DNA of 64,000 nt, from contig CAVXLD010000010.1 in NCBI GenBank assembly GCA_963762565.1, positions 160,001 through 224,000 of the forward strand. The letters are read 5' to 3'. The translations under genes and the position numbers were made by a program. This document shows positions 1,012-23,190 of this stretch, piece after piece (position 1 is the stretch's first letter; the number at the start of each line of letters is the position of its first letter). The notes under the pieces are model-generated. The model was not told the origin of the DNA. It saw only the letters and a list, made by a program, of their open reading frames with translations, and did not search any database. This stretch comes from an uncultured Verrucomicrobiae bacterium (lineage in GTDB: Bacteria; Verrucomicrobiota; Verrucomicrobiia; Chthoniobacterales; JAFAMB01).

Positions 1012-2244
1012 GTGACTGTCCCTTCGCTTGCGGAAAGGTTTCGCCCTGATTTCCCGATCCTGGATCAAAGGGTAAATGGATACCCGTTGGTGTACCTGGA
1101 TAACGCCGCTTCAACGCAACGGCCGGCCACTGTGATCGACGAAATCAGCCGCTACTACCGGCACGATCACGCCAATGTTCATCGAGGACTGCATGCGCTC
1201 AGTAATCGGGCTACTACTCTTTACGAAAATGCCCGCCAGCGTGTGGCCAATTATCTCAACGCTGAGCACGCCGAATCGATTATCTTCACCAGGGGCACAA
1301 CCGAATCGATCAATTTGGTGGCCTCTTCCTGGGCCGAAAACGAGCTCAAGCCGGGCGATGGCATTCTACTCACCGAGATGGAACATCACGCCAACCTGAT
1401 TCCCTGGCAGATCGTCGCCAGACGGACCGGAGCTAAACTTCACTTCTTAGCCGTGATTGGAGACGAAGGAGAAATCGATTGGTCCCAACTCGACACGATC
1501 CTCGCGAATAATCCGATCCGAATCGTTGCACTCACGCACATCTCGAATTCACTCGGCCGGATCAACCCGGTAGCAGAAGTATGTCGTGCGGCGCACAAGC
1601 ACGACGCGGTGACGCTAGTCGATGCAGCTCAAAGCGCCGGACACATGCCTCTCGATGTCAAAGCCTTGGATTGCGACTTTCTCGCTTTTTCAGGTCACAA
1701 ATGCTGCGGTCCAACCGGGATCGGAGTTTTGTATGGGCGAAAGAGCCTGCTGGAAAAAATGGAACCCTACCAGACAGGCGGCGAAATGATCGTGAGTGTA
1801 ACTTTTGAACGAGCGGAATGGAAGCCCACCCCTCATCGATTCGAGGCCGGCACTCCGCACATCGCCGGCGCCATCGGGTTAGCCACGGCGCTCGACTATC
1901 TTGACCGGGTCGGACGGACCTCGATTCAAGATAACGATCATTATTTTGGTAACACGGCTGCGAAACGGCTACGTGAAATACCTGATCTGCGTGTGTTTGG
2001 CCCTCGTAATGAGCGAGCGGGCATCGTCAGCTTTCAATTGGGCAACATCCATGCGCACGATCTGGTAGCATTTGCTGATCAGCAAGGGGTCGCGCTACGC
2101 GGTGGACACCATTGTAACCAACCACTTGTCCGTAAGCTCGGACTAAATGCCACCGCCAGAGCCAGCTTCTACCTCTATAATACCGAACCGGAACTTGATC
2201 GCTTAGTCGTGGTCCTCCGCGCGGCCGCAAGATACTTCGGCTAG
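1012..2244 (+). CDS. sufS: SufS-type cysteine desulfurase
   Basis: YLDNAAST, ANVHRG, FSGHKCCGPTG (PLP lysine), RGGHHC catalytic Cys. Confidence 0.95.
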   Translation: MTVPSLAERFRPDFPILDQRVNGYPLVYLDNAASTQRPATVIDEISRYYRHDHANVHRGLHALSNRATTLYENARQRVANYLNAEHAESIIFTRGTTESINLVASSWAENELKPGDGILLTEMEHHANLIPWQIVARRTGAKLHFLAVIGDEGEIDWSQLDTILANNPIRIVALTHISNSLGRINPVAEVCRAAHKHDAVTLVDAAQSAGHMPLDVKALDCDFLAFSGHKCCGPTGIGVLYGRKSLLEKMEPYQTGGEMIVSVTFERAEWKPTPHRFEAGTPHIAGAIGLATALDYLDRVGRTSIQDNDHYFGNTAAKRLREIPDLRVFGPRNERAGIVSFQLGNIHAHDLVAFADQQGVALRGGHHCNQPLVRKLGLNATARASFYLYNTEPELDRLVVVLRAAARYFG

Positions 2245-2479
2245 CCTGCCAGCCTCTCAAATCTGTTACGGATTTGAGAGGCTGGCAGGCTGTGGCCTTT
2301 AGACGGACTATTAGCGTCCGCCTAAAGGCAAAGCATCTTTAAGCGGAGATCGGTTGAAAATCGTGCTAGTGACCCTCGGTAAAACAACCAGTGCAGCAAA
2401 ATTCTCCGGCGTAGCGGAGAATTTTGCTATAGCCTGCGTTCTTCATCAATGCGTAATACATTGAAGAAGAACGCAGGCT
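2243..2479. repeat. Tandem array of 5-6 hairpins with AGC...GCT ends filling the sufS-sufU spacer
   Basis: Hairpins at 2243-2291 (23/24 matched), 2294-2330, 2332-2367 (degenerate), 2395-2428 and 2431-2479 (20/21). Confidence 0.85.
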
Positions 2480-2905
2480 ATGGACTTCGACGAGCTGTAT
2501 CAAGAGATCATCCTGGATCACTCGAAGCGGCCCCGCAACAGCGGCGTGCTGCCTCCACCCGCGACCCGGGGTTCAGGCTACAATCCGGCATGCGGCGACG
2601 AAGTGACCGTATTCGTTTTGCAGTCACCGGAAGGGAAAATCGAAACCATTTCGTTCCAGGCGCAGGCATGTGCGATCTGCACCGCTTCGACCTCGCTGAT
2701 GACGCTTCAAGTGAAAGGGGCGACTCAAGAACAGGCTTTAGCGTTGCTAAGACATTTCATTGATTTCCTGACCAAGGACGGCCCCAGCGAGGGTTTGGGC
2801 CACTTACGCGCTCTCGCCGGGGTGAAGAAGTTTCCGCAGCGCTTGAAGTGCGCGACGCTCGGTTGGCACGCACTGGAAGCAGCACTAAAGGGCGGGACGG
2901 GGTAG
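2480..2905 (+). CDS. sufU: SufU/NifU-type Fe-S scaffold / sulfur acceptor
   Basis: LYQEIILDH, NPACGD, ACAIC, RLKCATL; downstream of sufS. Confidence 0.92.
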   Translation: MDFDELYQEIILDHSKRPRNSGVLPPPATRGSGYNPACGDEVTVFVLQSPEGKIETISFQAQACAICTASTSLMTLQVKGATQEQALALLRHFIDFLTKDGPSEGLGHLRALAGVKKFPQRLKCATLGWHALEAALKGGTG

Positions 2906-3019
2906 GCGTATCGGGTGTGGGCGTAACAGCGTATCGGCGTTTGATCCGCGAGATGAACCGATGCGCGCCCGGATCGAATCGGGCGATTTAAATGTGAATT
3001 GTTGGTTTTTGAAACCAGC

Positions 3020-3048
3020 TTGACTTCTAATACGGTCGTACGTATTGG
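3020..3048 (+). promoter_or_regulatory. Putative promoter with overlapping TetR operator
   Basis: TTGACT (-35-like) at 3020-3025 and dyad AATACG-N6-CGTATT at 3029-3046, directly upstream of the tetR-family gene. Confidence 0.5.
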
Positions 3049-3647
3049 ATAGCGTGCCCAGACATTCTCTCCGTAACCGTATCCTCGAAGCCGGCCTCAA
3101 GGTCATGTTTCGTAAGGGTTACGTCGGAGCCAGCGTGCGCGATATTGTTGCCGAGGCGCCCGCGCCGCAGGGCTCGTTTACCAACCATTTCCGCTCAAAA
3201 GAGGAATTCGTGCGCGAAGTGCTCGACCTCTATTTCGAAAACCTGAAGCAAGTTGTCACGGAGACACTCGGAGACACCAGCCGCACGCCCCGGCAACGGC
3301 TCAAGCGTTATCTCGACTTCATCACGGAGCGTCTGGCCAACGCAGAGTTCAGCCGGGGATGCCTGATTGGTGATTTGAGTCTTGAAGCCGCACCGCAGAG
3401 CCAGATCCTCCGCGAACGCTTGGCCGATATCTTTATCGAATGGCGTACCCCCTTCGCCGCATGCATTGCAGAAGGGCAAGCAGCAGGCGAGATCGCCACA
3501 ACCTTTACCGCTGAAGAGCTTGCTGAGTTCCTCCTGTCCTCATGGGAAGGCGCCATCCTGCGCTTAAAGGTCGTGCGCAACGCCGAACCGCTGGAGCGCT
3601 TTAAACGCATCGCTTTTGCCACCGTATTCAAGGAACCGCCGCTATGA
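3045..3647 (+). CDS. TetR/AcrR family regulator (NemR-like)
   Basis: N-terminal HTH (GASVRDIV...GSFTNHFRSKE), RGCLIG motif; the real start may be GTG 3054; ATGA overlap with the next gene. Confidence 0.9.
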   Translation: MDSVPRHSLRNRILEAGLKVMFRKGYVGASVRDIVAEAPAPQGSFTNHFRSKEEFVREVLDLYFENLKQVVTETLGDTSRTPRQRLKRYLDFITERLANAEFSRGCLIGDLSLEAAPQSQILRERLADIFIEWRTPFAACIAEGQAAGEIATTFTAEELAEFLLSSWEGAILRLKVVRNAEPLERFKRIAFATVFKEPPL

Positions 3648-4549
3648 ATCCAGACATCACCCTTCCAAAAACCTCCGTCCTCGATTCCGAAATGGCCTAC
3701 CGGGAGGCGGGCCGGACAGACGCTCCGGTCGCACTCTTCCTGCATGGCAATCCGACATCATCATACCTCTGGCGCAACGTCATTCCGCGTGTCGCAGAGG
3801 TCGCCCATTGCATAGCCCCAGATCTGATCGGTTTCGGCCAATCGGGTAAACCTGATATCGCGTATCGTTTCGAGGATCATGCGCGCTATCTCGACGCTTT
3901 CATCGATAAGGCTGGCATTCGCTCGGCCTACCTTATACTGCACGACTGGGGATCAGGGCTCGGCTTCCACCTGGCAGCACGCCGGCCTGAGTTTGTACTT
4001 GGTTTAGCGTTCATGGAGTTTATTCGGCCGATCCCGACCTGGGAAGAGTTCTTGAGAGATTCGAACGCGCGGGAGATCTTCCGCAAGTTTCGCACCCCAG
4101 GGGAAGGAGAGAAATTGATCCTGGAAAACAACGCCTTTGTCGAGCGAGTGCTGCCGGGCTCGATTGTGCGCAAGCTCAGCGAGGAGGAGATGGCCGTCTA
4201 TCGATCCCCCTTCCCGACGCCAGAATCACGGCGGCCAACCTGGCGCTTTCCGAATGAACTACCGATTGCCGGACAGCCGGCCGACGTCGTTGCGACGATC
4301 GAAAAAGCGCTCGCAAGTCTCGCAGCGTCCACCTATCCGAAGCTTCTCTTCGCGGCGGATCCCGGCGCCCTAGTCCCACCGGCCATAGCAGAAGATTTCG
4401 CCCGCAAGCTTCATGATTGCGAATTAGTGAGGCTCGGCGCAGGCATACACTATTTGCAGGAAGATCACCCGGACACGATCGGTAGATCGGTTTCTGAATT
4501 CATTGCTAAAGTTGAGGAACGCAGGGCCAAGAGCATGGCCACATCCTAG
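3644..4549 (+). CDS. dhaA: Haloalkane dehalogenase (DhaA-like)
   Basis: LHGNPTSSYLWRN, nucleophile HDWGS, catalytic acid FMEFI, RRPTWRFPNELPI, base HYLQED. Confidence 0.88.
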   Translation: MNPDITLPKTSVLDSEMAYREAGRTDAPVALFLHGNPTSSYLWRNVIPRVAEVAHCIAPDLIGFGQSGKPDIAYRFEDHARYLDAFIDKAGIRSAYLILHDWGSGLGFHLAARRPEFVLGLAFMEFIRPIPTWEEFLRDSNAREIFRKFRTPGEGEKLILENNAFVERVLPGSIVRKLSEEEMAVYRSPFPTPESRRPTWRFPNELPIAGQPADVVATIEKALASLAASTYPKLLFAADPGALVPPAIAEDFARKLHDCELVRLGAGIHYLQEDHPDTIGRSVSEFIAKVEERRAKSMATS

Positions 4550-4822
4550 TGTCCTGTCCCATAAGTAACGTGGCGTTCGCCGTCGGTCAGTTGGCTGTTT
4601 TTCAAGGCGCGAGCGAAGCGCCCATATCTGGTTCATACGGGTCGAGCGAGCAACGCGGAAAAACAGCCAACTGGCCACGGCCCGGAGGGTTGCGATGAAA
4701 ATGGGCCGGCGGCTGCGTTGCTCGTCGGTTACGTATCAATCTAGATATGCGCCCTCCTCGCGCCTTGCCGGCGGCCCATTTTGATCGCAACGAAAGCCAC
4801 GTTATTTATGGGACAGGACACT
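4548..4822. mobile_element. MITE-like element with 32-bp terminal inverted repeats
   Basis: AGTGTCCTGTCCCATAAGTAACGTGGCGTTCG at 4548-4579 matches the inverted copy at 4791-4822 (30/32); internal inverted sub-repeats; no coding capacity. Confidence 0.75.
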
Positions 4823-4938
4823 CGTACGAGCTAAGGCGACAAGTCTTTTGGTCCTCTCGTCGTCCAACTACACTCCCTCACTCCGCGCCGCTAGATTCGA
4901 GGACGAGGACGATTACGATTGGACACGCCCCCACGCCA

Positions 4939-6621
4939 TTACGCTGTATTCCCCAGCTCCTGCGTGCCAAGGTCCAGGGGGCTGGCAGGCATGGTACCGG
5001 GTTTGCTTATCAGCGACACATGACTGAGAAGCTCTCGGTTTACACAGAGAAAAACGCGTTCGGTGGGCGGATCTTGTCCAACGTGCAATGTTACCGCTTT
5101 CTCTAAGACTTCTCTCTCGGATTGAGTGTATCGCTCCTTTTGCAACAGGTGCTCTGTCCAGGACGGCATCATCATTTCGATGCGGTAAACATTGGCTCGC
5201 CCGAGGTCCTCATGAAGGCGCCAGCTAAAGGCTCCGTTGCGAAGATGAATCAGGCGAACCTGGCGGAGCAACGTAATGAACTCAGACCCTCGATGGCGAT
5301 CGACCTCGAACTCGTAAGTGATCGAGATAGGTCCATCGTGCGGTCGCGGAATATGTAATAACTTATGCGAGAAACCGGTAACCGGGGCTGGATTGAAATT
5401 GAGCTCGCTGACGAAATTGAGAGAAAGCGGGATCGAAAGGAGAAGGCTCAACAAGAGTAACCCAGAGGCGATCTCCAGCGTAAAAGTGACGCCTAGGGTA
5501 CTGGCTAGAATACCCCAGATGATACCGCCCAAGGCCATGGCGCCTTGAGAGAACATGATAATAGTAGCGTTCATTCGACCACGAGCCCAATCGGGCATAG
5601 CCCGCTGGCTGACGACCCAAAGTTCGGATGCCGCTAGCGTCCAACCAATCCCGGCTACGGCCGCGATAGCCATGAACAACACATGGTCTACGACCAAACC
5701 CATCCCGATGTACACCAGCACTAACAGAACGCTCGAAGAGAGAATGATTGAATTGGAAGAAAGGTGATCCCGGGCTTTCGGCACCACAAACACCGCTCCG
5801 AAGACGGATCCGGCGCCCATGCAGGTGAACAAAAGTCCCAAACTCGATGGCTCGAACTTCAGCTTCTGCAGACCAACAACGGGAAGCAGAGCAGGGATTA
5901 CACAGATAAAGAGTGAGAACAAAACGTTACGCGCCAGGACGACTCGGAGTCCGGGGGCAAAACGGACATAACGAATTGCGGTCGAGAACGATTCTAAGAA
6001 ATTCTCTAGGGGCAGCTGGGAGTTTCGTACCGGACGTTTCCACTGCGCGATCGCAAAAATTACGAGGAAGAAACAGAGGGCGTTGGTGGCGAAGATCCAG
6101 CTGGGAGAAACAAATCGTAAGGCTAATCCACCGATAGCTGGTCCGATAATACCGGAAATATTGAAGGATAGCCCGCTTAAGGTGGAAGCCGAGGGCAACT
6201 CTTCATTTGTAACAATTTCAGGCACTATTGCCGTCCAGGCGGGCGCATTGAAGGCAAAACCGACCCCGGTTAGAAAAATACAAATCAACACCAGCGCCGG
6301 AGTGAGCCAATGAAACGCAAAAAGCAGCGCCAGCAGAGCGGCAGTGAGCGCCAGCCATAAATTCATAAAACGCAAGAGCTTCCGCCGATCGACCATGTCC
6401 GCCAAAGCACCGGCAGGGAGCGTGAACAAAAAGAAAGGGAGAGAGGCGACCGTCGACATCAAGGAAAGCAAGAAGGCTGACGGGCTAAGCATATTCATCA
6501 CCCAGGTAGCAGTGGTGTCATGTGCACTAATGCAAATGCTCGACAAAAGGCTAGCCAACCAGATTCGACAGTAGGTCGAATTACGGAGCGCGGTAAAAGT
6601 GGAAGAGTGATGATTAGACAT
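4939..6621 (-). CDS. MFS transporter (MFS_3 / transmembrane secretion effector type) with soluble C-terminal domain
   Basis: About 12 hydrophobic segments, AGALADMVDRRK motif A, about 150-aa soluble tail (RNGAFSWRL...SWTEHL). Confidence 0.85.
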   Translation of the reverse strand: MSNHHSSTFTALRNSTYCRIWLASLLSSICISAHDTTATWVMNMLSPSAFLLSLMSTVASLPFFLFTLPAGALADMVDRRKLLRFMNLWLALTAALLALLFAFHWLTPALVLICIFLTGVGFAFNAPAWTAIVPEIVTNEELPSASTLSGLSFNISGIIGPAIGGLALRFVSPSWIFATNALCFFLVIFAIAQWKRPVRNSQLPLENFLESFSTAIRYVRFAPGLRVVLARNVLFSLFICVIPALLPVVGLQKLKFEPSSLGLLFTCMGAGSVFGAVFVVPKARDHLSSNSIILSSSVLLVLVYIGMGLVVDHVLFMAIAAVAGIGWTLAASELWVVSQRAMPDWARGRMNATIIMFSQGAMALGGIIWGILASTLGVTFTLEIASGLLLLSLLLSIPLSLNFVSELNFNPAPVTGFSHKLLHIPRPHDGPISITYEFEVDRHRGSEFITLLRQVRLIHLRNGAFSWRLHEDLGRANVYRIEMMMPSWTEHLLQKERYTQSEREVLEKAVTLHVGQDPPTERVFLCVNRELLSHVSLISKPGTMPASPLDLGTQELGNTA

Positions 6622-6811
6622 GCGTCTAAAAAGGGGGGAGTAAGAAAACGGGGTAAAATTCCCTCAGGCTGAAGACTTTGACAACTGCATTAAGGCAGTA
6701 ATTGGGAGGAGTTTAATAAGGCAGCCAGTTTCGAAAAGTGAAACTAATTCAAAAGGTCATTGATCTTAGTTCACCCTGCCTCCAGACAAAGCGATCAGCG
6801 ACTATCAAACG

Positions 6812-8476
6812 CTACACGCTGTAGCCTGCTTGGCTGACCTCGTCTTCCGGCGTTTCCAAGTTCGTGGAGTTTAGCCGGCGAGTCATCAGTTCCCGGTGCA
6901 CGGATAGATAATGCTTTACCAAAGGCCCGTCTGAAGCCGAGGTGTGCAGACTCCACGTCCTCCGCCAAACCGCCAGCTCGTTTTTGGTCATTCGCTTGTG
7001 CTGTTCGAGATGCTCTGACCACGACGAAACCATCATTTCCATTCGGAACCGGTTCGGCTTTTCCAAGTCCTCGTCCAACCTCCAACTAAACGCTCCATTT
7101 CTCAGGTAGATGAGGCGCATCTCCCGCATTAGATCGAGAAAACGACGCCGGTTTTCCTGTTCAATTTCAAACACCATCACCACTACCACGGGTCCATCTG
7201 AAGGATCAGGTAGGTGCAAGAATCGATGGTACTGGGTCGTTAACGGAGCCGGATCCAGGTCCAGTTGCTTGGTAAAATCGATCGAAAGCGGGAAGGCCAA
7301 AGACAAGCTGAAGATTAGAAATAGCGCAGCGGCGATTAGCGCGAACTCGACGTTGACGCCGGCGGCCAGCGCACCCCAGGTGAGCCCACCCAACGCCAGA
7401 CCACCCTGAGAAACCATCATGTGCGTGGCGTTCATTCGCCCACGAGCCCAGCTGGGCATGGCTCGCTGGCCGGCCACCCACAACTCCGAAGCAGTCAGCG
7501 TCCAACCAAGTCCAGCCAATGCCGCGACTACCATGAACAAATTCGTGTCCCGAACAAAGGCCATCAATAGAAAAACAAAAGCCAGCAACAGATTTGCCAG
7601 AATGGTCAAGGTATTAGCGGAGAATTTGGCTCGGGCTCGTGGAATCACCACCACCGCTCCGATCACCGAACCGACTCCCATAGATGTGAACAACAGACCC
7701 AACTTAGATGGGTCCAGACCCAGTTGCTTGAGACCGACCACGGGCAACAGCGCCGGGATGACCGCAATAAAAACCGCGAAAATCACATCACGCACCAACA
7801 CAACCTGAATCCCCGGGGCGTATCGGATATAGCGGACCGCGCTGGCTAACGAATCGAAGAAATTTTCCAGCGGCATTTTTGGGGTTGCATAAACGCGGCC
7901 CCACCCAGAGAGAGTCAGGAGGAGAAGGAAAAAACAGATCGCATTTGCCGCAAAAACAAACTGAGCGCCGAACCTCGCTAGTACCAGACCGCCGATGGCC
8001 GGGCCGATAATACCCGAGATGTTAAGTTGAAGCCCACCCAGAGTGATGGCAGAGGCTAATTGTTCCTTCGATACTACTTCGGGAACAAGGGCCGACCAAG
8101 CCGGCGCGTAGAAACTGAAGCCAATCCCGATTAGAAAGACGGATAAGAGAATCAGGTATGGGTGAAGCCAGTTTAGTCCTGTCAACAGCGCTAAGCCTCC
8201 TGCAACAGCGCCGAGCCAGACATTCATCACGCAGAGGATCTTGCGCCGGTCAGTCATATCGGCCAAAGCGCCGGCGGGTAGCGTAAAAAGGAAAAACGGG
8301 AGCGATGCGACGGTCGAGATGAGCGAAATAAGAAAACTCGAATGACTCAGTCTGCTCATCAGCCAAGTACTGGCCGTGTCATGCGCGGAAACGCAGGTAC
8401 CCGATATCAAGCTCATCACCCAAAGCCTTTTGAACAGAGGGTTTTGCAATGAAAGAAACGTGGAAGTCTTCGTCAT
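6812..8476 (-). CDS. MFS transporter, tandem paralog of 4939-6621
   Basis: Shares STVASLPFFLFTLPAGALADM, ASELWV, WARGRMNAT and LRNGAFSWRL with its neighbour. Confidence 0.85.
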   Translation of the reverse strand: MTKTSTFLSLQNPLFKRLWVMSLISGTCVSAHDTASTWLMSRLSHSSFLISLISTVASLPFFLFTLPAGALADMTDRRKILCVMNVWLGAVAGGLALLTGLNWLHPYLILLSVFLIGIGFSFYAPAWSALVPEVVSKEQLASAITLGGLQLNISGIIGPAIGGLVLARFGAQFVFAANAICFFLLLLTLSGWGRVYATPKMPLENFFDSLASAVRYIRYAPGIQVVLVRDVIFAVFIAVIPALLPVVGLKQLGLDPSKLGLLFTSMGVGSVIGAVVVIPRARAKFSANTLTILANLLLAFVFLLMAFVRDTNLFMVVAALAGLGWTLTASELWVAGQRAMPSWARGRMNATHMMVSQGGLALGGLTWGALAAGVNVEFALIAAALFLIFSLSLAFPLSIDFTKQLDLDPAPLTTQYHRFLHLPDPSDGPVVVVMVFEIEQENRRRFLDLMREMRLIYLRNGAFSWRLDEDLEKPNRFRMEMMVSSWSEHLEQHKRMTKNELAVWRRTWSLHTSASDGPLVKHYLSVHRELMTRRLNSTNLETPEDEVSQAGYSV

Positions 8477-8730
8477 CTCGTGCTCGGCGGCCGTTTTTGG
8501 TCCAATATGTCTCTCCTAATCTCTAGAGCGAGCCGGCCGCCCTCGCTAGGCTACGCGCGCCATCGCGGAGTCAGAAACTCACCCCTGCCGAGCCTAAGCC
8601 AGTTCTTAACCTGGACAAATTGCTATTTGAGTCCTGGAACCGGATGCCGGCTCTTCGATTCCAACAGCAGACCCCTCGGAACAAGAGCGCTTGTAACCAA
8701 AAAGAACCTTGACTTATATGGAGCTAACTT

Positions 8731-9456
8731 ATGCCCTTGCTGAATTCCGAGCAGTCGGCCGACTCTCCGGATGTCCCCCCCATGGTAATTAAACGTTCAC
8801 CAAAGATTATCCTGGAAGGCACCCGCCTGACGGGAAAGACCGATCTAGCGTTTGCTCTCAATGAGCACCCGCGCATTATCGGAGTTAGGAAATATCGCTA
8901 CCACTCGCCGATCATCTCAGCCGAGTGGAACGGTTTTACTCGAAGTCCGTACGGCGCCAGCTTGATTAATTTCACGCCCGCGTACGAAGAGTTGGCGATG
9001 GAAGCTTATCGCACCTGGGCCAAACTCTTTGAGCTTTACCGGTACTACTCTTGGATCGTCGACCGGTTCCACATCTCGACTCAAGTGTGGCAATCGATCT
9101 ACGCAAAGCGGCACTATGATTTCACCTGGTTAGAAAAAAGACTGGTGCCTCTTGGATTCCGTTTAGTCCTTTGCTGGCGACGTCCTGACTCGTTTGAAAA
9201 GGCCAGACAACGCCGGCTGGCCATCTCGAGCAACCCGTCACAATACGAAGATCTACAGATTTTTCTTCGGGAACAAGAGGTCATGCAAGAACTGTTCGAT
9301 CGATCGCTTCTTCCGAAAATGGTCGTGGATGTAACCGATAAAAGTCCAGACGAAATGGTTACGGATGTGGCCGACTGGTTAGAGGCTACCGGCGCGCTAA
9401 CCGTGCCCGACATGGAGCCAATGGTGGCGGAAGAGGATAACATCCTTGATCACTGA
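8731..9456 (+). CDS. Uncharacterised P-loop protein, thymidylate/NMP-kinase-like
   Basis: IILEGTRLTGKT Walker A and WIVDRFHIS (DRx motif of dTMP kinases). Confidence 0.6.
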   Translation: MPLLNSEQSADSPDVPPMVIKRSPKIILEGTRLTGKTDLAFALNEHPRIIGVRKYRYHSPIISAEWNGFTRSPYGASLINFTPAYEELAMEAYRTWAKLFELYRYYSWIVDRFHISTQVWQSIYAKRHYDFTWLEKRLVPLGFRLVLCWRRPDSFEKARQRRLAISSNPSQYEDLQIFLREQEVMQELFDRSLLPKMVVDVTDKSPDEMVTDVADWLEATGALTVPDMEPMVAEEDNILDH

Positions 9457-9532
9457 TTACTTTCTCGTTCGTGTGCCCGCCGCAATTCTTGCCAAGAGCC
9501 TTTATTAGCCTCATCTTGGAGGCACCCTTTCT

Positions 9533-10723
9533 ATGACCCGCTTGGTCCTTTGCGCCGTTCTCGTCTTCACCTGGATACGCCCAGCCGCTGCTTGGGTGAA
9601 TGGAGAGCTCTCCATTTGGATGGATTCAGATCGATTGCCCGCAATGCGAGAAGCCGGTCGAAAGTTCGAGCACGATTACGGAATCAAAGTCAATGTGGAT
9701 GCGACTGAAAACATTCCGAATAACTTCCCTTTAGCAGCGCAATCCGACAAAGGACCTGACGTTGTCATCTTTGCGCACGATAAAGTCGGCGAGTGGGCAG
9801 ACGGAGGATTGATCGCACCGATCCCGGTCGCCGCGTCCTACCGGGCGCGGTTCCATGGCGACTGCTGGGACGCCGTCCGGCACCGAGGCGAATATTGGGG
9901 CTACCCGCTCTGTTTTGAAGTCGTAGGACTGATCTACAACAAAAAACTGGTTCCAGGGTCGCCTCCCGCCCAGCTCTCGGACCTAATCGACTTGAACCAA
10001 CGAATCAAAGCCGAGCGCCCCGGTGTAACGACCATCCTTTGGGATTATGCCAGTCCCTACTATTCATGGGGCATCTTCGGCAGCGCCGGAGCCTATGTCT
10101 TTGGCAAAACTGACGCTGGCTACGACACCAAGGATGTTGGGATCGCCACTCCGGGCGCCGTTGACGCACTCAATCAACTTGTCGGCCTAGTCCATGCGGG
10201 TGTCCTGCCAAAGGCAGCATCGATGGCTGGGATACCAAAAGAGATGATGGCGGAAGGGAAGCTCGCGATGATGATTTCTGGCCCCTGGGACTGGCCAGAT
10301 TTGATGAAGAGCGGGATTGATTTCGGCGTCGCGCCGATTCCAGGCGTAGACGGCAAGCCAGGGAAGGCGTTTGTAGGGGTATCCGTTGCCTACATTAATC
10401 GGAGTTCACCTAATCTCGATATTGCCCGGCAGTTCTTGGAGAATTACGCCATCACAGACGAGACACTGAGCACCGCCAACAAGTTGAAGCCGATCGGTAT
10501 TCCCGCTCTGAATTCGCTCTACGAGAGGATGTCGAAGAATGACGAGCTACTTCGTGAGATGGAAGTGTGCGCCGACGACGGCGAAGTAATGCCAAACATT
10601 CCCCAGATGGGCCGATTCTGGGGCGCGTTCGGCTCTGCCCTCCAACTCGCAACCAACGGTCAAATGACCGCGCAAGCGGCCTTGACCGAGGCGCAACAGA
10701 ATATGCTTCCAGCGCGCAAGTGA
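9533..10723 (+). CDS. malE: Maltose/maltodextrin ABC substrate-binding protein (MalE-like)
   Basis: Signal peptide (AAA-W), GPDVVIFAHD, LIYNKKL, ISGPW, FVGV, GEVMPNIPQMGRFW. Confidence 0.85.
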   Translation: MTRLVLCAVLVFTWIRPAAAWVNGELSIWMDSDRLPAMREAGRKFEHDYGIKVNVDATENIPNNFPLAAQSDKGPDVVIFAHDKVGEWADGGLIAPIPVAASYRARFHGDCWDAVRHRGEYWGYPLCFEVVGLIYNKKLVPGSPPAQLSDLIDLNQRIKAERPGVTTILWDYASPYYSWGIFGSAGAYVFGKTDAGYDTKDVGIATPGAVDALNQLVGLVHAGVLPKAASMAGIPKEMMAEGKLAMMISGPWDWPDLMKSGIDFGVAPIPGVDGKPGKAFVGVSVAYINRSSPNLDIARQFLENYAITDETLSTANKLKPIGIPALNSLYERMSKNDELLREMEVCADDGEVMPNIPQMGRFWGAFGSALQLATNGQMTAQAALTEAQQNMLPARK

Positions 10724-14367: not shown

Positions 14368-16845
14368 ATGGGAAAAACGCTCGTCATCGCTGAAAAACCA
14401 AGTGTCGCTCTCGACCTTACGAGGGCGCTCGGCCGGTTTGAGAAGAAAGGTGATTATTTCGAGAATGACCGATTTGTCGTGTCATCGGCAATCGGCCACC
14501 TGGTCGAGCTCTGTCTTCCGGCAGAATTAGACAAGAAGAAGGGTAAATGGAGTTTTCAGAGTTTGCCGATCATCCCCGACGAATTCCAACTCAAGCCGAT
14601 AGCAAAGACGGAGAGCCGGTACAAACTTCTGCGGCGTCTAATGGAGCGGCCGGATGTTACCGAGATCGTCAACGCGTGCGACGCCGGACGAGAAGGAGAA
14701 CTCATCTTCCGCTACCTGGTAAGGCTAGCAGGCGCTAAAAAGCCCTTCAGCCGCCTTTGGTTGCAATCAATGACAGCGGACGCTATCAGGTCAGCGTTCG
14801 CTCATCTTAGGACAGACCGCGAAATGATTCCGCTTGCGGAAGCGGCTGTTTGCCGATCCGAAAGTGATTGGCTTGTTGGCATCAATGCGACGCGCGCGAT
14901 GACCGCCTTTAACTCAAAGGTTGGCGGCTTCCAACTCACACCGGTTGGACGCGTACAAACTCCCACCCTCGCAATCCTGGTCGAGCGAGAAGAGAGAATT
15001 CGCCGGTTTGAACCCAAGAGTTACTGGGAAGTCGTAGCCGACTTCAACGTTTCGGCGGGTACTTTTCGCGGTCGCTGGTTCGATGAAGGGTTTCAGAAGG
15101 ATGCAGACGAAGGTCGGCGTCCAGAGCGAATTTGGACAGCGGAACAGGCAAACGCGATCCATGACAAGGTGCTCGGCAAATCCGGCACCATAACAGAAGA
15201 GAAGAAGCCAACTACTCAGGCGCCTCCCCTTCTCTACGACCTGACTTCTTTGCAACGGGAGGCTAACGCCCGTTTCAGTTTTTCCGCGCGACGGACTCTG
15301 CAGATCGCGCAACAGCTTTACGAGCGTTACAAGGTGATCACCTATCCAAGGACTGATTCCAGGTATCTGCCGGAAGACTATCTCGGCACCGCCAGCAACA
15401 TTCTGGGCCACCTGGCAGATCCGACTCTGGCTCCAGCAGCCAGGAAAGCATTGGCCAATAACTGGGTCCGGCCAAGTAAACGGATCTTCGACAACGCCAA
15501 GATCACCGACCATAACGCGATCATCCCAACCGGCCAAAACCCGCGAAACCTGGACGAAGCGCAGCAGAAGCTTTTCGATATGATCGCTCGACGCTTCGTG
15601 GCGGTTTTTTATCCGCCGGCCGAGTTCGAGGTGACCACGAGAATAACGCGGGTTGAAGGCGAAGCGTTCAAAACGGAAGGCAAAGTTATCAAGGAACCGG
15701 GGTGGCTGGAGGTATACGGCCGTCACGCAGCTACCGATGAACAGAGCGACGCATTGGTCGCCGTTGTAACGGGAGAATCCGCCCTTGCCGCCCAAGTTGA
15801 GGTCAAAGAGAACCAAACCAAACCTCCGGCTCGCTACACAGAAGCTACCCTGCTTTCGGCCATGGAAAGCGCTGGTAAACTGGTCGACGACGAGGATCTC
15901 CGTGAGGCGATGTCGGCTAAAGGCTTGGGAACACCAGCAACCCGCGCGGCCATCATTGAAGGATTGATTCAAGACAGCTACATCAATCGTGAGAATCGCG
16001 ACTTGATTGCTACGGCTAAAGGAATCTCGCTGATCACTCTTTTACGAGGCATCGGTATCGAGTTGTTATCCTCCCCTGAACTGACCGGCGAGTGGGAACA
16101 TAAGCTGAAGCTGATGGAACACGGCGACCTCGACCGGTCGACGTTCATGAAGCAGATCAAGCACTTGACCAGCGAGATCGTCGATAAAGCCAAACACTTC
16201 GAAAGCGACGTCGTCGAAGGAAATTACGTTACGCTAAACGTCCGGTGTCCAAACTGCGGCGCCTCTTATCTAAAGGAGGATTACCGAACTTATCACTGCG
16301 AAAACTGTGAGTACCGGCTTTTCAAGAATTTGGCCAGCCGAGAACTCAGCCCAGCAGAGGTAACCACTCTGATCAGAGAACGAAAGGTAGGACCGCTAGA
16401 AGGATTTCGAAGTAAGACGGGCCGGCCGTTTGCTGCCTTGGTGATTCTCAATGACGACAACAAGCCGGAATTCGCCTTCGAGAGCGGTCTGTCCTCCAAC
16501 AACATCCAAATAGATCCGGAACAGCACACTGCTTTGGGTCTGTGCCAAGTGTGCAAATCCGGTCAGGTCTACGATGTAGGCCCAGCTTACATCTGCGAGA
16601 ATGTTTCGAAGGGCTCTTGTACGTTCAAGATGAGCAAGACCATTCTCCAAAGAGAGGTCCCGCCTGACCAACTCAAGAAAATGCTCACCGAGGGGAAAAG
16701 CGATTTGCTTCGACGTTTCATCTCTAAGAAGGGAAGGCCGTTCGACGCATCGCTAACCCTAGTGGATGGGAAAATCGGTTGGGAGTTCGCCAAGCGCGAA
16801 GCCCGGCCCCGCCGGAAGAAGCCGGAGTCGATTCCAAATGCGTAA
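14368..16845 (+). CDS. topB: Type IA topoisomerase (topoisomerase III-like with C-terminal repeats)
   Basis: IAEKPS, CDAGREGE, GRVQTPTL, ITYPRTDS catalytic Tyr, GLGTPATR, repeated F.SK.GRPF.A. Confidence 0.9.
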   Translation: MGKTLVIAEKPSVALDLTRALGRFEKKGDYFENDRFVVSSAIGHLVELCLPAELDKKKGKWSFQSLPIIPDEFQLKPIAKTESRYKLLRRLMERPDVTEIVNACDAGREGELIFRYLVRLAGAKKPFSRLWLQSMTADAIRSAFAHLRTDREMIPLAEAAVCRSESDWLVGINATRAMTAFNSKVGGFQLTPVGRVQTPTLAILVEREERIRRFEPKSYWEVVADFNVSAGTFRGRWFDEGFQKDADEGRRPERIWTAEQANAIHDKVLGKSGTITEEKKPTTQAPPLLYDLTSLQREANARFSFSARRTLQIAQQLYERYKVITYPRTDSRYLPEDYLGTASNILGHLADPTLAPAARKALANNWVRPSKRIFDNAKITDHNAIIPTGQNPRNLDEAQQKLFDMIARRFVAVFYPPAEFEVTTRITRVEGEAFKTEGKVIKEPGWLEVYGRHAATDEQSDALVAVVTGESALAAQVEVKENQTKPPARYTEATLLSAMESAGKLVDDEDLREAMSAKGLGTPATRAAIIEGLIQDSYINRENRDLIATAKGISLITLLRGIGIELLSSPELTGEWEHKLKLMEHGDLDRSTFMKQIKHLTSEIVDKAKHFESDVVEGNYVTLNVRCPNCGASYLKEDYRTYHCENCEYRLFKNLASRELSPAEVTTLIRERKVGPLEGFRSKTGRPFAALVILNDDNKPEFAFESGLSSNNIQIDPEQHTALGLCQVCKSGQVYDVGPAYICENVSKGSCTFKMSKTILQREVPPDQLKKMLTEGKSDLLRRFISKKGRPFDASLTLVDGKIGWEFAKREARPRRKKPESIPNA

Positions 16846-16963
16846 CAGCATTTGGAATCGATTCCGGCTACGACCGCGAACATCCCGGCTATAGCCGGGA
16901 CATTCGCTGTAATAGCCAAGATTTAAGGGAAAATGCTCGATCATTTTCCCTTAAATCTTGGCT
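16820..16963. repeat. Three tandem hairpins between convergent topB and ppk1 (probable bidirectional terminator)
   Basis: 16820-16869 (21/22, topB stop in the loop), 16876-16907 (core TCCCGGCTATAGCCGGGA), 16914-16963 (22/22). Confidence 0.85.
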
Positions 16964-19152
16964 TAGGCTGGCTGGTCTACGCCCCCGGACACTTCTTTCT
17001 TGCCCGGCTGCTTCACTACGACCGGCTTAACTTCCAGCTCTGGCCGTTTCCGTTTGGTCAAACGTTCCAAAAACAAAGCCTGACAGTCAAGCGGGTGCCC
17101 ATCAGGATGCATCTTCGCATAAGTTAGCTCTGAGTTTTGTTCCCGAGCCTTAACGTTGTCAGCCCAATAAGTATTGATGATCTCATCGAGATGAGTCCGG
17201 TGATCCGGATCCTCGACCGGGAAGCAGCTTTCTACCCGCCGGAAAAAGTTCCGCGGCATCCAGTCTGCACTCGCCAAATAGAGCTCGGGATGTCCCCCGT
17301 TTTCGAATCGGTAGATTCTGCTGTGCTCAAGGAACCGCCCAACAATGCTCCTCAGAGTAATATTATCACTAACCCCGGGGACATGTGCTCTCAAGCAGCA
17401 GATACCGCGCACTAACAGTCGAATCTTAACCCCAGCTTGAGATGCCTGATAGAGCGCCTCGATTACCTCCGTATCAACCAGCGAATTTAATTTAGCGAAG
17501 ATTGCAGCCGGTTTGCCCGCCTTGGCATGCTCTGTTTCCCGCTCAATCATATCGAGCACAAACTCGTGCAGTTTTTTCGGTGCCGCCTTGATCTTGACCA
17601 GTTCCGGAAAGACAGAGACCCCAGTCAACCAATTGAAAAGCTCAGCGCAATCGTTGGTTATAACCGGGTCGCAAGTCAATAGACTTAGATCTGTGTAAAG
17701 GCGGGCAGTGGATGGATGATAATTTCCAGTTCCAAGATGCAGGTAACGCCGGATACCTTCCTCTTCTTTTCTGACCACGAGCGCCATTTTCGCATGGGTC
17801 TTTAGGCCGACGATGCCGTAAACCACATGAACGCCGGCCTCTTGCAGCGTGTGCGCCCACTTGATGTTAGCCGCTTCATCGAACCTCGCTTTCAATTCGA
17901 TCACGACGGTTACCTGTTTCCCACTCTCCCCTGCTTGGGCCAAAGAAGCGATGATGGGCGAATCTCCGCTGGTCCGATACAGCGTCTGCTTTATGGCTAA
18001 AACACTCGGGTCTTCGGCGGCCTGTTCAATAAAATCCAAGACCGTCTGAAAACTGTCATAAGGATGGTGTAGAAGCATCGGCTTACGCCGGACTTGGGTA
18101 AAGATATCGTCTCCATCCGTGCCCGTGACCACTAACGGAACAAAGGGCTTATATTTGAGATCTGGCCGATCGACTCCAGCGACAACCGGCATTAAACGAG
18201 AGAAGTTGATCGGGCCGTCTACGGCGTAAAGGTCATCTCCGTCCAAACCAAACGTTTGCAGAAGCTGATCGGACACATGACCGGGACATTCCTTCTGCAC
18301 TTCCAATCGGACCGCCGCACCTCGATTCCGCTTGCGCAGCTCGATCTCGATCGTCTTCAGCATGTTCTCCGCTTCTTCCTCGTCCAGATAGAGATCGCTG
18401 TTTCTGGTAACCCGGAATTGGTAGGCGCCTTTTACTTTCATGCCATGGAATAGAGATCCCACGTGCGCCTGAATCAGATTGCCAATAAAGATGTATCGAT
18501 AAATTCCTCGTTCTCCCGCTTTGTAGGGTAAGAGTCGCGGTAAAATGCGCGGCACCTGCACCACCGCCAAGCTGGTGCCCAGCTCACCGCCTTCGAGCTC
18601 AACGGCGACATTTAGGCTTTTGTTTAGTAACTGCGGAAACGGATGCACGGGATCCACAGCCAGCGGAGTTAGAACGGGATAAACAGACTTCTCAAAATAA
18701 TCTGTGTAGTACTTCTTTTCGTCATCGCTTAGGTCATCCCAGCTAAGGAAAAAGATGTGTTGCTCCTCCAGTCCCGGCACCAAGACCTCGTTCCAAACCC
18801 GATATTGATCGTCGACCATCCTTCTCACCCTCTTCGAGACGGCGACCAGTTGTTCATTGGGGCCCATGCCATCCGGACCAGCCGCGCTCACTTTGCTGTC
18901 CCTTTGCTGTTTTAGTCCGGCCACCCGAATCTCAAAGAACTCGTCTAGATTCGAACTGACAATACAAAGGAATTTTACGCGCTCGAGTAACGGGTTCGCC
19001 GGGTCTTGCGCCTCTTCCAGCACACGCTGATTGAATTCTAGCCAGCTCAGTTCCCGATTAGTATAGAGGGCGGGATCGTTAAACGTTGGAGCTTTGGACG
19101 CTTCCATAATCTTCTTTTGCGGGAGAGGGCGAGCTTTTCGTTTCTTCTGCAT
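16963..19152 (-). CDS. ppk1: Polyphosphate kinase 1
   Basis: NRELSWLEFN, SSNLDEFF, LKTHAK, TGNY, GRFLEHSR. Confidence 0.97.
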   Translation of the reverse strand: MQKKRKARPLPQKKIMEASKAPTFNDPALYTNRELSWLEFNQRVLEEAQDPANPLLERVKFLCIVSSNLDEFFEIRVAGLKQQRDSKVSAAGPDGMGPNEQLVAVSKRVRRMVDDQYRVWNEVLVPGLEEQHIFFLSWDDLSDDEKKYYTDYFEKSVYPVLTPLAVDPVHPFPQLLNKSLNVAVELEGGELGTSLAVVQVPRILPRLLPYKAGERGIYRYIFIGNLIQAHVGSLFHGMKVKGAYQFRVTRNSDLYLDEEEAENMLKTIEIELRKRNRGAAVRLEVQKECPGHVSDQLLQTFGLDGDDLYAVDGPINFSRLMPVVAGVDRPDLKYKPFVPLVVTGTDGDDIFTQVRRKPMLLHHPYDSFQTVLDFIEQAAEDPSVLAIKQTLYRTSGDSPIIASLAQAGESGKQVTVVIELKARFDEAANIKWAHTLQEAGVHVVYGIVGLKTHAKMALVVRKEEEGIRRYLHLGTGNYHPSTARLYTDLSLLTCDPVITNDCAELFNWLTGVSVFPELVKIKAAPKKLHEFVLDMIERETEHAKAGKPAAIFAKLNSLVDTEVIEALYQASQAGVKIRLLVRGICCLRAHVPGVSDNITLRSIVGRFLEHSRIYRFENGGHPELYLASADWMPRNFFRRVESCFPVEDPDHRTHLDEIINTYWADNVKAREQNSELTYAKMHPDGHPLDCQALFLERLTKRKRPELEVKPVVVKQPGKKEVSGGVDQPA

Positions 19153-20555: not shown

Positions 20556-20641
20556 AATCATCCCTAAGGCGAGCTCCGACACGGCATGGGAGCTGCTTTA
20601 TCGGAGCTTGATCTTTGTCGCCTCCCTGGAAATCATATCGC

Positions 20642-22081
20642 ATGGGCAAACTGTTTGACGGTTACGACCCAAATCCGTTCTTCGACGAGATGTTCATGTC
20701 GCCGGCGCAGGTCCGCCCCCATTACCAGCGCCTCTTCGAGCGATACAGTGATCTGACCGTGGGTGAGTTCGACCGCAAAAGGTTAGTGGCCGACAATTCG
20801 TTTCTGACCCAAGGCATCACTTTCACCGTCTATAATGACACCGAGGGGACCGAGCGAATCTTTCCTTTTGATTTGGTGCCGCGGATAATTCCGCTGAACG
20901 AGTGGCTCCATATCGAGGCCGGACTCACGCAACGGATCGCGGCGTTGAACTTGTTCCTTCGGGACATCTATCACGAACAGAGGATCCTGAAGGATGGAGT
21001 GATTCCTGCCGAAATCGTCCATAGCGCCGTCCACTTCCGCCCGGAATTCATGGGATTTAAGGTTCCAAAAGATATCTACATCCATATCTGTGGGACTGAC
21101 CTCGTTCGCGACCGGGACGGCAATTATTTAGTGCTGGAGGACAATGGCCGCTGTCCGTCTGGCGTTTCTTATCTTCTGGAGAACCGGCAAACCATGAAAC
21201 GGGTATTTCCGAATCTCTTTTCGCGTTATTCAGTACAGCCAGTTGATCGGTACTGTGAGGAACTGCTGAACCTGTTGCGGTTCGTGGCTCCCGGCGGAAA
21301 TCCCGAACCGACCGTGGTACTCCTCACTCCCGGGATCCACAACTCTGCTTACTTCGAGCATTCGTTTCTAGCTAGGTCGATGGGCATCGAGATCGTAGTC
21401 GGAGCTGACCTCGTGGTGCAGGCCGGCTATTTGATGATGAAGACCACGAAAGGTCTGAAAAGGGTGGACGTAGTCTATCGGCGAATCGACGACGACTTTC
21501 TGGACCCGCAGGTTTTTCGAAAAGACTCACTACTAGGGGTTCCCGGCCTGGTTGAAGTCTATCAGCACGGCAACGTGAGTTTAGCGAATTCCATCGGCAC
21601 CGGTGTGGCGGATGATAAGGTGACTTACCATTTCGTTCCTAAAATGATCCGGTATTATCTCGACCAGGACCCGATCTTATCGAATGTCCCTACCTACCTC
21701 TCGATGTTCGATGATGACCGCAAGTATATACTCGAACACCTCCCGGAACTGGTGGTAAAATCGGCTAACGAAAGCGGCGGCTACGGAATGTTGATCGGCC
21801 CTCACGCTACCCGCGAGGAAATCGAGAAATTTCGAGACCTGATCACCAATAACCCCCGTAACTATATTGCGCAGCCGGTGGTTCAGCTGTCCCGGTCTCC
21901 TTCTTTTGTCAGTGGTCGCTTCGAAGGACGGCACATCGATTTACGGCCGTACATTCTGTTCGGAGAAAAGACGACAATCATTCCGGGAGGCCTGACGAGA
22001 GTCGCTCTGCGAAAGGATTCATTGGTCGTTAATTCGTCGCAAGGCGGTGGCAGTAAGGATACCTGGGTTCTTAGTGAGTAA
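20642..22081 (+). CDS. Circularly permuted type 2 ATP-grasp protein
   Basis: [63 protein letters not shown]. Confidence 0.92.
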
Positions 22082-22129
22082 ACGTTGAAAAAAAACAATC
22101 ACACGTTTTAGATTGGGTTCGCGCCAAAG

Positions 22130-23101
22130 ATGCTTTCCCGAGTTGCCGACACCCTCTATTGGCTGAGCCGTTATATCGAACGGGCGGAGAACAATGCCCG
22201 AATGCTGGACGTAAACCTCCAGTTAACGCTGGATGCTACCATTCTAAACCATCGTTACACCCAGCAGCATTGGGAGTCGATTATCTACTCACTAGAAGAT
22301 ACGAAACTGTTTCAGGAGCTCTATCCGGGCATCAGCGGTGAGACAGTGGTCGATTTCGTCTCATTTGAGCGCAAGAACCCCAATTCCATTTATTCCTGTT
22401 TGTGCTCGGCAAGAGAGAATGCCAGAAGCGTGCGCGAGCTGATCTCGTCCGAGATGTTCGAGCAGTTGAATCGGATGTACTTGGATTTCCGGTCTGGGGA
22501 AGCGGAACGACTCTTTCGTTCCAGCAGTTATCAATTCTTCAAATGGGCGCTTCAAGGCTGCCATCTCTTCCAGGGGATCGCCGACGCCACCATGGCGCAT
22601 GATGAAGGTTGGAAATTTCTTCAGCTCGGAAAGTTTCTGGAACGAGCGGACCGGACCTCCAGAATCCTCGACATTAAATATCATATCCTGCTTCCTAAAG
22701 AAGAGCAGGTCGGTGGCACGATTGATAGTGTACAGTGGTTCGCCGTTCTTAATTCGTGCAGTGGCGCCGAGGCGTATCGGCGACAATTCCAGGGGCAGGT
22801 CGCACCCTGGAAAGTCGCGGAATTCTTGATTAAAGATGCTTCTTTTCCGCGTTCGATCCGCTTCTGTGTCGATTCTCTCGACCATTCCTTGCATCAGATC
22901 ACCGGGGTCGATCGAGGCGATTTCCTTTACAAAGTCGAAGCGGAACGGCTCTCGGGTAAACTCCTGGCCGATCTATCCTTCGTGACCATGGACGATGTAT
23001 TCAGGATCGGGCTCCATGAATACTTAGACGGAATCCAGCTGAGATTGGGTGAGATCAGCAAGACAATCTACAAAGAATTTTGCGAATGGCTGGATAGCTA
23101 A
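22130..23101 (+). CDS. Alpha-E domain protein (DUF403)
   Basis: MLSRVA..LYW..RYIERAE, ARENAR, LERAD, FPRSI; downstream of the ATP-grasp gene. Confidence 0.92.
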   Translation: MLSRVADTLYWLSRYIERAENNARMLDVNLQLTLDATILNHRYTQQHWESIIYSLEDTKLFQELYPGISGETVVDFVSFERKNPNSIYSCLCSARENARSVRELISSEMFEQLNRMYLDFRSGEAERLFRSSSYQFFKWALQGCHLFQGIADATMAHDEGWKFLQLGKFLERADRTSRILDIKYHILLPKEEQVGGTIDSVQWFAVLNSCSGAEAYRRQFQGQVAPWKVAEFLIKDASFPRSIRFCVDSLDHSLHQITGVDRGDFLYKVEAERLSGKLLADLSFVTMDDVFRIGLHEYLDGIQLRLGEISKTIYKEFCEWLDS

Positions 23102-23190
23102 GGCAGGCGCCTTAGCTATCCAGCCATTCGTAAAATTCTAGTAGCCAAAGTGGGTGCGAGAGGCGTACGCCTCTCGCACCCATTTTGGCT
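23074..23190. repeat. Two tandem hairpins between convergent alpha-E and cysNC
   Basis: 31-bp arms at 23074-23104 / 23109-23139 (30/31) include the last alpha-E codons; a 48-nt palindrome at 23143-23190 abuts the cysNC stop. Confidence 0.85.

Follow-up and report, generated by a model that had tools for sequence, protein, structure and literature searches.

Repetitive extragenic palindromic (REP) sequences, bacterial interspersed mosaic elements (BIMEs) and REP doublets forming hairpins (REPINs) are the described systems closest to the repeat considered here. REPINs have been characterized as having two conserved ends and a spacer defined by length and pairing, in which compensatory changes are common (Bertels & Rainey, 2011; PMC3116915). 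REP-associated tyrosine transposases (RAYTs) are reported to bind single-stranded REPs, to require GTAG 5' of the hairpin and to cut at CT; in one RAYT system only the last two bases of the tag (AG) are strongly selected (Corneloup et al., 2021; PMC8266576). Catalogues exist of 20-40 bp repeats tagged with GTAG or CGTC, and the verrucomicrobium Opitutus terrae is reported to be rich in GTAG repeats (Di Nocera et al., 2013; PMC3733652). In this study, we analysed a 64 kb stretch of DNA (the window; G000:C10:160001-224000) from the genome of an uncultured Verrucomicrobiae bacterium (G000; 6.12 Mb, 54% GC, 15 contigs), together with five congeners (G001-G005) and further relatives. The window carries five palindromes, here termed P1 hairpins, at 2243..2291, 2431..2479, 16820..16869, 16914..16963 and 23143..23190, which an earlier note had singled out as units of fixed length with conserved ends. 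They are present as described: all are 48-50 nt in length, start with AGCC and end with GGCT, and in order of coordinates their Watson-Crick, G.T and mismatched pairs number 22/1/0, 20/1/2, 21/1/1, 22/0/1 and 21/1/0. The P1 hairpins probably form a repeat of the REP/BIME kind, non-coding, interspersed in the DNA and confined to one lineage. The repeat has not been catalogued before and belongs to a single family of soil Verrucomicrobia; no description of it was found in the literature on Verrucomicrobia REPs or on compensatory changes in REPIN/RAYT systems.

The P1 family and its two-hairpin unit

The genome was scanned for hairpins with AGC...GCT termini and at most four non-Watson-Crick pairs, which gave 69 hairpins with lengths of 48 (29), 49 (19), 50 (8), 47 (5), 46 (2), 42 (4), 51 (1) and 53 (1) nt. 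When all 64 trinucleotides were compared as termini, AGC yielded 92 hairpins, 61 of them of 47-50 nt, and the other frequent termini (GCC and TAG) proved to be the same element shifted one base in or out. On contig C10, nine real AGC...GCT hairpins stand against none in five shuffles. The enrichment at about 49 nt is confirmed genome-wide against other termini and on C10 against shuffled sequence, and a chance origin of the five palindromes is excluded.

A covariance model of P1 alone (R1; 37 training copies, 22 pairs) was then used, P2, the second hairpin described below, being omitted because its MAFFT alignment was too poor for a two-hairpin model. Run over the window with filters off, R1 matches all five hairpins, scoring 62.1, 62.1 and 60.1 bits for those at 2243, 2431 and 16820, which belong to the training rows, and 45.9 and 41.8 bits for those at 16914 and 23143, which do not; beyond the five, it finds no other convincing copy in the 64 kb window. 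In the whole genome, where 150 of 1563 candidates were scored, there are 128 matches over both strands, representing about 70 loci. An Rfam search of the window returned 0 matches at the gathering score. To judge from their sequences, the five hairpins share descent from one sequence family.

The stems had been thought to be unrelated to one another, to share a CGTA centre and to escape repeat finders based on identity, and none of these views is borne out. A logo of 64 copies shows conservation of AGCCTGC (stem positions 1-7, the foot) and of AAATGC (positions 17-22). Positions 8-16 vary freely, with all four Watson-Crick pair types, no bulges and about 95% pairing, a figure inflated by the hairpin-based ascertainment of the copies. 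Identity-based tools do recover the family by way of the conserved foot, and CGTA or TACG occurs within the central 12-13 nt in just 12 of the 64 copies. The family consensus is (Y)T followed directly by AGCCTGCATCGCTCACAAATGC-loop-GCATTTGTGAGCGATGCAGGCT, the 3' ...GGCT end of the copies being fixed by the search criterion.

The complete unit consists of a T (usually after C or T), the 22-bp perfect hairpin AGCCTGC-N9-AAATGC-loop ending in CT, a 3-nt linker and often P2. In most copies, this second hairpin of about 38 nt, with the apex CCGGC-GTA-GCCGG, lies on one side of P1 only; its consensus is GCAGCAGAAT..TCCGGC-TAC-GCCGGA..ATTCTGCTGC, with 3 nt between P2 and P1. The unit is thus polar: a strongly folding flank (48 nt at -11 kcal/mol or lower; background 1% quantile -12.2) is found on exactly one side of 39 of 65 P1 copies (21 left, 18 right) and on both sides of none. 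Half of the strict CCGG-apex P2 hairpins (9/18) adjoin a listed P1, and inspection of the flanks of the other nine places five beside P1-like sequence, three of these being R1 matches. Units also form mirrored doublets, P1-P2...P2'-P1' with P1 outward, of which there are 13 pairs with a spacing of 44-227 nt, often occupying the entire spacer between genes; in further mirrored pairs the second P1 has decayed. Comparison of the 13 cores between mirrored units revealed no similarity and no conserved core. The same foot, AGCCTGCATTTCTCACAG...CTGTGAGAAATGCAGGCT, is also found in a sister family that has a non-palindromic interior of 35-70 nt and occurs in G000 at C1:830625, C7:195878, C5:446678, C10:433654 and C1:697832.

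Spread of P1 and its position at gene boundaries

The family is restricted in its range. In a pattern search of genome contigs, 77 of the 80 matches listed (of at least 120) came from metagenome-assembled genomes (MAGs) of Verrucomicrobiota or Chthoniobacterales, and the remaining three (Pedobacter, a Clostridia MAG and a Methanosarcinales MAG) equal the number expected by chance. Of 15 genomes sampled from the bacterium's own taxonomic family, 11 have R1 matches, against 0 of 135 genomes from 15 other families of the order. All five congeners are positive, with 18-112 matches each over both strands (150 candidates scored per genome), and the same consensus was found in several genera. Copy number among relatives ranges from about one locus each in G012 and G016 to more than 100 in G045, a relative from genus g4 (3.3 Mb, 74% complete), where 150 of 150 scored candidates match R1. 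The many near-identical copies in G045 indicate recent spread. Among 120 pattern matches listed, 93 are distinct and one sequence occurs nine times. In low-copy genomes, copies close to the consensus persist between housekeeping genes.

Orthologous loci were compared for presence and absence, as the earlier note had proposed, and filled, partly deleted and empty sites were found between congeners. A 237-nt composite occupies the sufS-sufU spacer of G000, G003 and G005; this spacer measures 0-32 nt in distant relatives and 15 nt in G001, which has no composite, and in G004 the left P1 and half of P2 have been deleted. The same spacer of G002 holds a different repeat, with CCTATAGG-like words of 7-8 nt in hairpins, that is also seen in G000 at C2:13551 and C8:1376. 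Among 58 P1 copies in regions fetched from G003 and G005, 35 have a syntenic P1 in G000 (one pairing is spurious) and 23 have none; some of the latter are detection misses, and others correspond to a different repeat or a remnant in G000. Decayed copies may be halved, collapsed to mini-hairpins of 27 nt or shortened by deletion between GGCT repeats, and diverged P1 copies are retained across the genus. Near-identical copies and presence or absence between congeners together show that P1 has multiplied within genomes. Over window positions 2000-2700, contigs of four DNA runs have breaks at the hairpins and a few single variants; the hairpins account for assembly breaks at spacers, since contigs of other runs end there.

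The contact of the hairpins with start and stop codons noticed in the window is real and general across the units of the family. P1 lies within called spacers in 61 of 65 cases, and in 30 of 39 oriented units its side is no more than 10 nt from a called gene boundary, comprising 17 stops and 13 starts (genes were called as a greedy longest-open-reading-frame set, and the start codons are therefore uncertain). The nearer gene is faced by P1 in 32 units and by P2 in 7 (p = 7e-5). Tandem, convergent and divergent spacers with P1 number 31/10/10, compared with 31.9/9.6/9.5 expected (p = 0.97), so that there is no preference for 3' ends.

The junction itself was read from 116 distinct near-consensus copies in other MAGs, of which 90 have a T before AGCC on one strand only, 10 on both and 16 on neither. 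The base before this T in the 90 is C in 41, T in 27, A in 14 and G in 8, making the junction YTAG; CT precedes AG in 41 of these 90 oriented young copies. By inspection, the junction T lies on the side away from P2 in five of six low-copy cases with a P2. Inspection of 27 P1 copies in the G045 regions further showed that 10 share exactly 2 nt (the AG after a T) with a stop codon; the remaining stop contacts are one overlap of 1 nt, two abutting and one 2 nt away. At the two genuinely empty orthologous sites, sufS of G001 and G054 compared with the G045 gene, a TAG stop is already in place at the same codon, and at a third site the TAG stop is likewise found in G000, with a different repeat replacing P1. 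G005 and G003 each carry one P1 by itself exactly between a TAG stop and an ATG start at a locus whose counterpart in G000 (C9:176314-176531) is a different palindrome of about 216 nt with GGTAGGGCGAGGCTCCCG ends. In G045, a module CTAGCCCGCAATGAGCTC (reverse complement ..TTGCGGGCTAG) recurs next to P1 copies, and in G043 the same module forms the last codons of the gene compared at the G045/G054 empty-site locus. Target duplication of TA was considered and rejected, T...A being present on both sides in just 10 of the 116 copies.

These junctions suggest that insertion is oriented and takes place immediately 3' of a pre-existing TAG or YT, which would explain why P1 lies so often exactly on stop codons, facing the gene. 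The AG of the junction may belong to the element or to the target, the data being compatible with either. A more specific proposal, which we put forward only tentatively, is that P1 is a 48-nt stop-codon-homing mobile unit, cut in trans as CT^AG...GGCT^ by an HUH or other enzyme, inserted after TAG and kept palindromic by template switching. If this were true, stop-codon homing would let P1 colonise gene ends harmlessly, often becoming part of the coding end or the start of its neighbours, and the family would preserve a natural history of template switching that could be dated. The family offers a testable idea of why such repeats are placed exactly on stop codons.

Evolution of the stems at orthologous loci and in the window

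The rate of change was determined for 34 orthologous P1 pairs, G000 against G003 or G005, with each stem pair scored as unchanged, changed in both arms with pairing kept, changed in one arm only, or other. The search for orthologues demanded AG at positions 1-2, C or G at position 3 and a CT 3' end. At positions 8-16 (306 pairs), 59 pairs (19%) changed in both arms with pairing kept and 20 (6.5%) in one arm. The corresponding values are 11 (4.6%) and 4 for positions 1-7 (238 pairs) and 11 (8.1%) and 4 for positions 4-7 only (136 pairs), the latter being the fair comparison for the foot as positions 1-3 are fixed by the search. Loops differ at 18 of 89 sites (20%), and at positions 18-19, which are not fixed by the search, 1 of 68 cells changed. 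Compared with the middle stem and loops, the foot and the sub-apical AAAT have a rate of change lower by a factor of about four, so that something presumably still reads them. In the orthologous copies compared, paired double changes number 98 and changes confined to one arm 42. Even between orthologues, the stem sequence changes while length, ends and pairing persist, as had been claimed for the window hairpins.

If substitutions were independent, matched double changes would be rare at such rates. Under selection for pairing in RNA, transitions by way of G:U would be favoured and G.T tolerated, and this is not the pattern seen: the double changes comprise 36 transitions and 55 transversions, and the stem mismatches 14 G.T and 14 A.C. 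The paired changes therefore point to homogenisation of the arms at the DNA level (template switching) and not to RNA selection. A mutation arising in one arm would be undone or passed on to its partner arm, template switching during replication of the quasi-palindrome being the most likely route. Such copying would keep pairing and length perfect while the middle of the stem drifts, which would give the impression of unrelated stems. Template switching at quasi-palindromes has been described as turning imperfect inverted repeats into perfect ones (PMC7202029, PMC5941160), and both accounts cite Ripley (1982) for quasi-palindrome correction. Correction of this kind explains the perfect arms, the paired double substitutions, the transversion-rich spectrum and the strand symmetry of P1; being a mutational process and not an element, it leaves the conserved foot, the fixed length and the copy number unexplained. 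Read in this way, the family would provide unusually clean comparative evidence that short bacterial palindromes evolve by DNA-level copying from arm to arm, and a caution against taking covariation as proof of RNA structure.

The same data bear on the view that P1 and P2 are RNA-level elements, transcribed hairpins (terminators, 3' mRNA stabilisers or RNase III sites) whose pairing is selected in RNA. Many copies directly follow stop codons, TTT often comes after P2 in G045, the length of a 22-bp stem would suffice for RNases specific for double strands, and E. coli REPs near stop codons are reported to affect mRNA fate. We nevertheless regard an RNA-level role as unlikely: units face starts and stops alike and in both orientations relative to transcription, the spacer types equal the genome-wide proportions, G.T mismatches are no commoner than A.C, and compensated changes are mostly transversions, unlike those expected from G:U intermediates. 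The lack of T-tracts noted for the window hairpins is also general, with T4 within 10 nt in only 3 of 64 copies. In a terminator scan of window positions 1500-17500 none of the hairpins was terminator-like, and the Rfam result adds no match. Intrinsic terminators were accordingly rejected, both the T-tract and the 3'-end preference being missing.

Slow change of the foot would also be expected if the hairpins were domesticated sites at which a host DNA-binding protein (nucleoid, gyrase or partition-like) reads the AGCCTGC foot and AAATGC, a role of the type put forward for REP/BIME elements; such reading would account for their persistence at orthologous sites. The roughly fourfold rate difference, the retention of diverged copies across the genus and the near-consensus copies kept between housekeeping genes in low-copy genomes all fit such a role. 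Set against them are the frequent loss, halving or collapse of copies between congeners, a copy number that differs among relatives from about one locus to over 100, which a fixed host function would not lead one to expect, and a slow foot rate that is partly due to the search method. To our knowledge, no protein that binds P1 has been described, and we consider this explanation improbable.

The suggestion that a process makes palindromes from local DNA stands in part. A 66-nt hairpin at the P2 position beside the last P1 of the window (23074..23139; no strand assigned; 31-nt arms, 97% match) is exactly such a case: its left arm is formed by the last codons and stop of an Alpha-E domain gene, the right arm is the reverse complement of the left and has changed together with this coding arm in each of the five congeners. 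This hairpin is built from local DNA, by the same arm-copying process as in the P1 stems, and palindrome perfecting best fits the overall pattern. The G001 version carries an insertion in the loop. Template switching is also reported to be able to lengthen inverted repeats (PMC13100816). As an account of the five P1 hairpins, independent de novo formation from local DNA with no common descent is highly improbable and is already contradicted: all five match R1, including the two outside its training set, and the same consensus occurs in several genera, with more than 100 near-identical copies in G045. The five are not independent local palindromes.

The window hairpins occur in three layouts, and the genes that flank them are ordinary (SufS-like, NifU-like, topoisomerase, polyphosphate kinase, Alpha-E and CysNC-like). 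The first layout, 2243-2479, is a mirrored composite. Its left unit has a 49-nt P1 on the plus strand (2243..2291), the first two bases of which are overlapped by the TAG stop (2242-2244) of the sufS-like gene and the orthologues of which in G005 and G003 show compensated stem changes; the linker GTG joins it to a folding P2 (2295..2329, plus strand) that is kept in G005. The right, mirrored unit consists of P2' (2395..2428, minus strand; apex CCGGCGTAGCGG), a 14-bp inverted repeat with 100% complementarity, and a 49-nt P1' (2431..2479, minus strand) with orthologues in G003, G004 and G005, directly after which the NifU/SufU-like gene starts with ATG at 2480. The second layout, 16820-16963, is P1-P2-P1'. 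Its 50-nt P1 (16820..16869, plus strand) has orthologues and deletion forms among the congeners, and the topoisomerase reading frame ends inside it at 16845, its last codons being supplied by the left arm of P1; in G004 this repeat at the topoisomerase end has collapsed to AACCTGCATCGGCT and the gene stops at a TAG just downstream. A single P2 (16873..16910, no strand assigned; apex CCCGGCTATAGCCGGG) lies between the two P1s and is common to both; it is found in G005 and not in G002. The diverged 50-nt P1' (16914..16963, minus strand) has orthologues with compensated changes in G005 and G002, and its last base is overlapped by the stop codon of the polyphosphate kinase gene (minus strand). In the third layout, 23074-23190, the long hairpin is followed by the most diverged P1 (23143..23190, 48 nt, minus strand), which has orthologues in G002, G003, G004 and G005 and the last base of which is overlapped by the stop codon of the CysNC-like gene (minus strand). 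A solo P1 left arm, AGCCTGCTTGGCTGA, at 6823..6837 (plus strand) is a decay remnant, the corresponding P1 being intact in G003. The surrounding window positions 6650-6880 (G000:C10:166650-166880) hold what decay has left of two hairpins, both still intact in G003, with about 110 nt of other sequence inserted.

Candidate partner enzymes and comparison with known systems

The earlier note stated that no cognate enzyme is encoded in the window, which holds for the families searched for: Y1 transposases, PDDEXK_3 proteins and integron integrases gave no match there, these being the three families scanned. Genome-wide, none of the 12 Y1_Tnp matches in G000 is flanked by P1-family hairpins. Nor was a parent insertion sequence with P1-arm ends found, since no inverted pair of solo arms encloses a gene in G000. 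Neither is there a recurrent neighbour in low-copy genomes, where 26 flanking proteins are products of unrelated housekeeping genes. At G000:C10:518077-518882, a P1 kept in G003 and G005 lies directly beside an XerC/D-like tyrosine recombinase gene; this is probably a coincidence, as P1 adjoins many genes. The PDDEXK_3 genes of G000 lie between mirrored arrays of 7-9 nt words (GCAGATTAC, CACAGAGGA) that are unrelated to P1 (C1:116913, C11:163341, C11:64902, C1:643983 and others). The analogy drawn with integron attC sites recognised by their structure, prompted by conserved ends and pairing around a variable centre, can hardly be right, as the best match to the integron integrase model TIGR02249 in G000 reaches 78 bits against a cut-off of 265, the copies are scattered singly or mirrored without cassette arrays, the stems are perfect without extrahelical bases and the attC core sites (R''/R') differ from the AGCC/GGCT ends of P1.

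Short Y1 genes of G000 are flanked by classic short REPs with the foot (G/A)TAG-CCWGG, for example GTAG-CCTGGCAT-GAA-ATGCCTGG, which has 64 pattern matches counted over both strands. This foot resembles that of P1 (TAG-CCTGCAT), and by this resemblance in sequence the short Y1 genes are a lead to candidate enzymes, not a demonstration. The loci C7:408772, C3:712536, C3:55497, C9:102253 and C1:119032 of G000, which contain inverted GTAG/ATAG/TCAG + CCWGG hairpins and GTCCC-GTA-GGGAC mini-hairpins, look like REPtrons; one of the five genes has an in-frame TAG. By analogy, from the match to an xTAG guide and a CT foot, the best guess is that a RAYT-like single-strand mechanism may act on P1 in trans.

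Among other known systems, miniature inverted-repeat transposable elements (MITEs) such as the Correia elements are small gene-less spacer repeats, and certain of them provide the stop or start codon of an adjacent gene. P1 is likewise small, gene-less and situated in spacers, but unlike MITEs it shows no target-site duplication, and no parent insertion sequence with matching inverted ends was found in G000. The single-strand transposition of IS200/IS605 and its gene-less derivatives offers oriented insertion without target duplication beside a short fixed sequence, and end hairpins (PMC8266576), as in P1; P1 differs in lacking distinct left and right ends, in having no TnpA inside or beside its copies and in commonly forming mirrored pairs.

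The assignment of P1 to repeats of the REP/BIME kind also has points that weigh against it. P1 measures 48-49 nt with a perfect 22-bp stem, compared with 20-40 bp for catalogued REPs (PMC3733652), and its tag is YTAG overlapping the stem rather than GTAG, G coming first in 8 of 90 copies. P1 thus departs from REP/RAYT systems in the exact tag, in unit size and in the bracketed RAYT gene. The proposed look-out for a co-occurring recombinase or HUH nuclease brought to light no partner gene beside any P1 copy. R1 found no bracketing P1 at 41 Y1_Tnp loci (8 in G000, 29 in relatives and 4 in G045, one G045 locus repeating that of a relative); its sole match, among the 37 loci of G000 and relatives, lies 1.2 kb from the gene, and the four of G045 have none. 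A PDDEXK_3 (GxxExxY-type) partner was rejected, with P1 at 0 of 12 loci and the genes flanked by word repeats, and genes enclosed by P1 pairs in G000 are ordinary housekeeping genes. As to the junction, the older copies of G000 have T at the outer -1 base in 13 of 39 cases and A in 15; the case for insertion after TAG consists of two empty-site comparisons and one site with another repeat, and insertion after the T of any stop codon was rejected, as the right flanks do not begin with AA, AG or GA. With regard to the stems, ascertainment through hairpins favours paired copies, the slow rate of the foot is partly built in by a search in which positions 1-3 cannot appear changed, slower change of the foot and AAAT could reflect a host function, and the third-codon divergence of flanking genes (about 36%, from four ungapped alignments only) is a weak neutral yardstick.

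Further differences concern organization. P1 has a fixed P2 that makes it a polar two-hairpin unit, the junction TAG is often the stop codon of the host gene, and at none of the 41 loci does P1 bracket a RAYT gene as in a REPtron. Placement of P1 among REP/BIME repeats is nevertheless the reading that we favour, on the strength of the likenesses. In common with REPs, BIMEs and REPINs, P1 is a dispersed, high-copy extragenic palindrome with xTAG 5' of the hairpin and CT, the predicted cleavage site, at the foot. It shares with them conserved ends around a variable interior, frequent compensatory changes and a patchy, lineage-specific range. Its inverted doublets are mirrored with the heads outward and form mosaics with other hairpins, and G000 itself has RAYT genes with GTAG-CCWGG REPs. 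For a phylum in which such repeats have barely been described, P1 is a well-defined addition, its consensus, covariance model, polarity and taxonomic range all being available.

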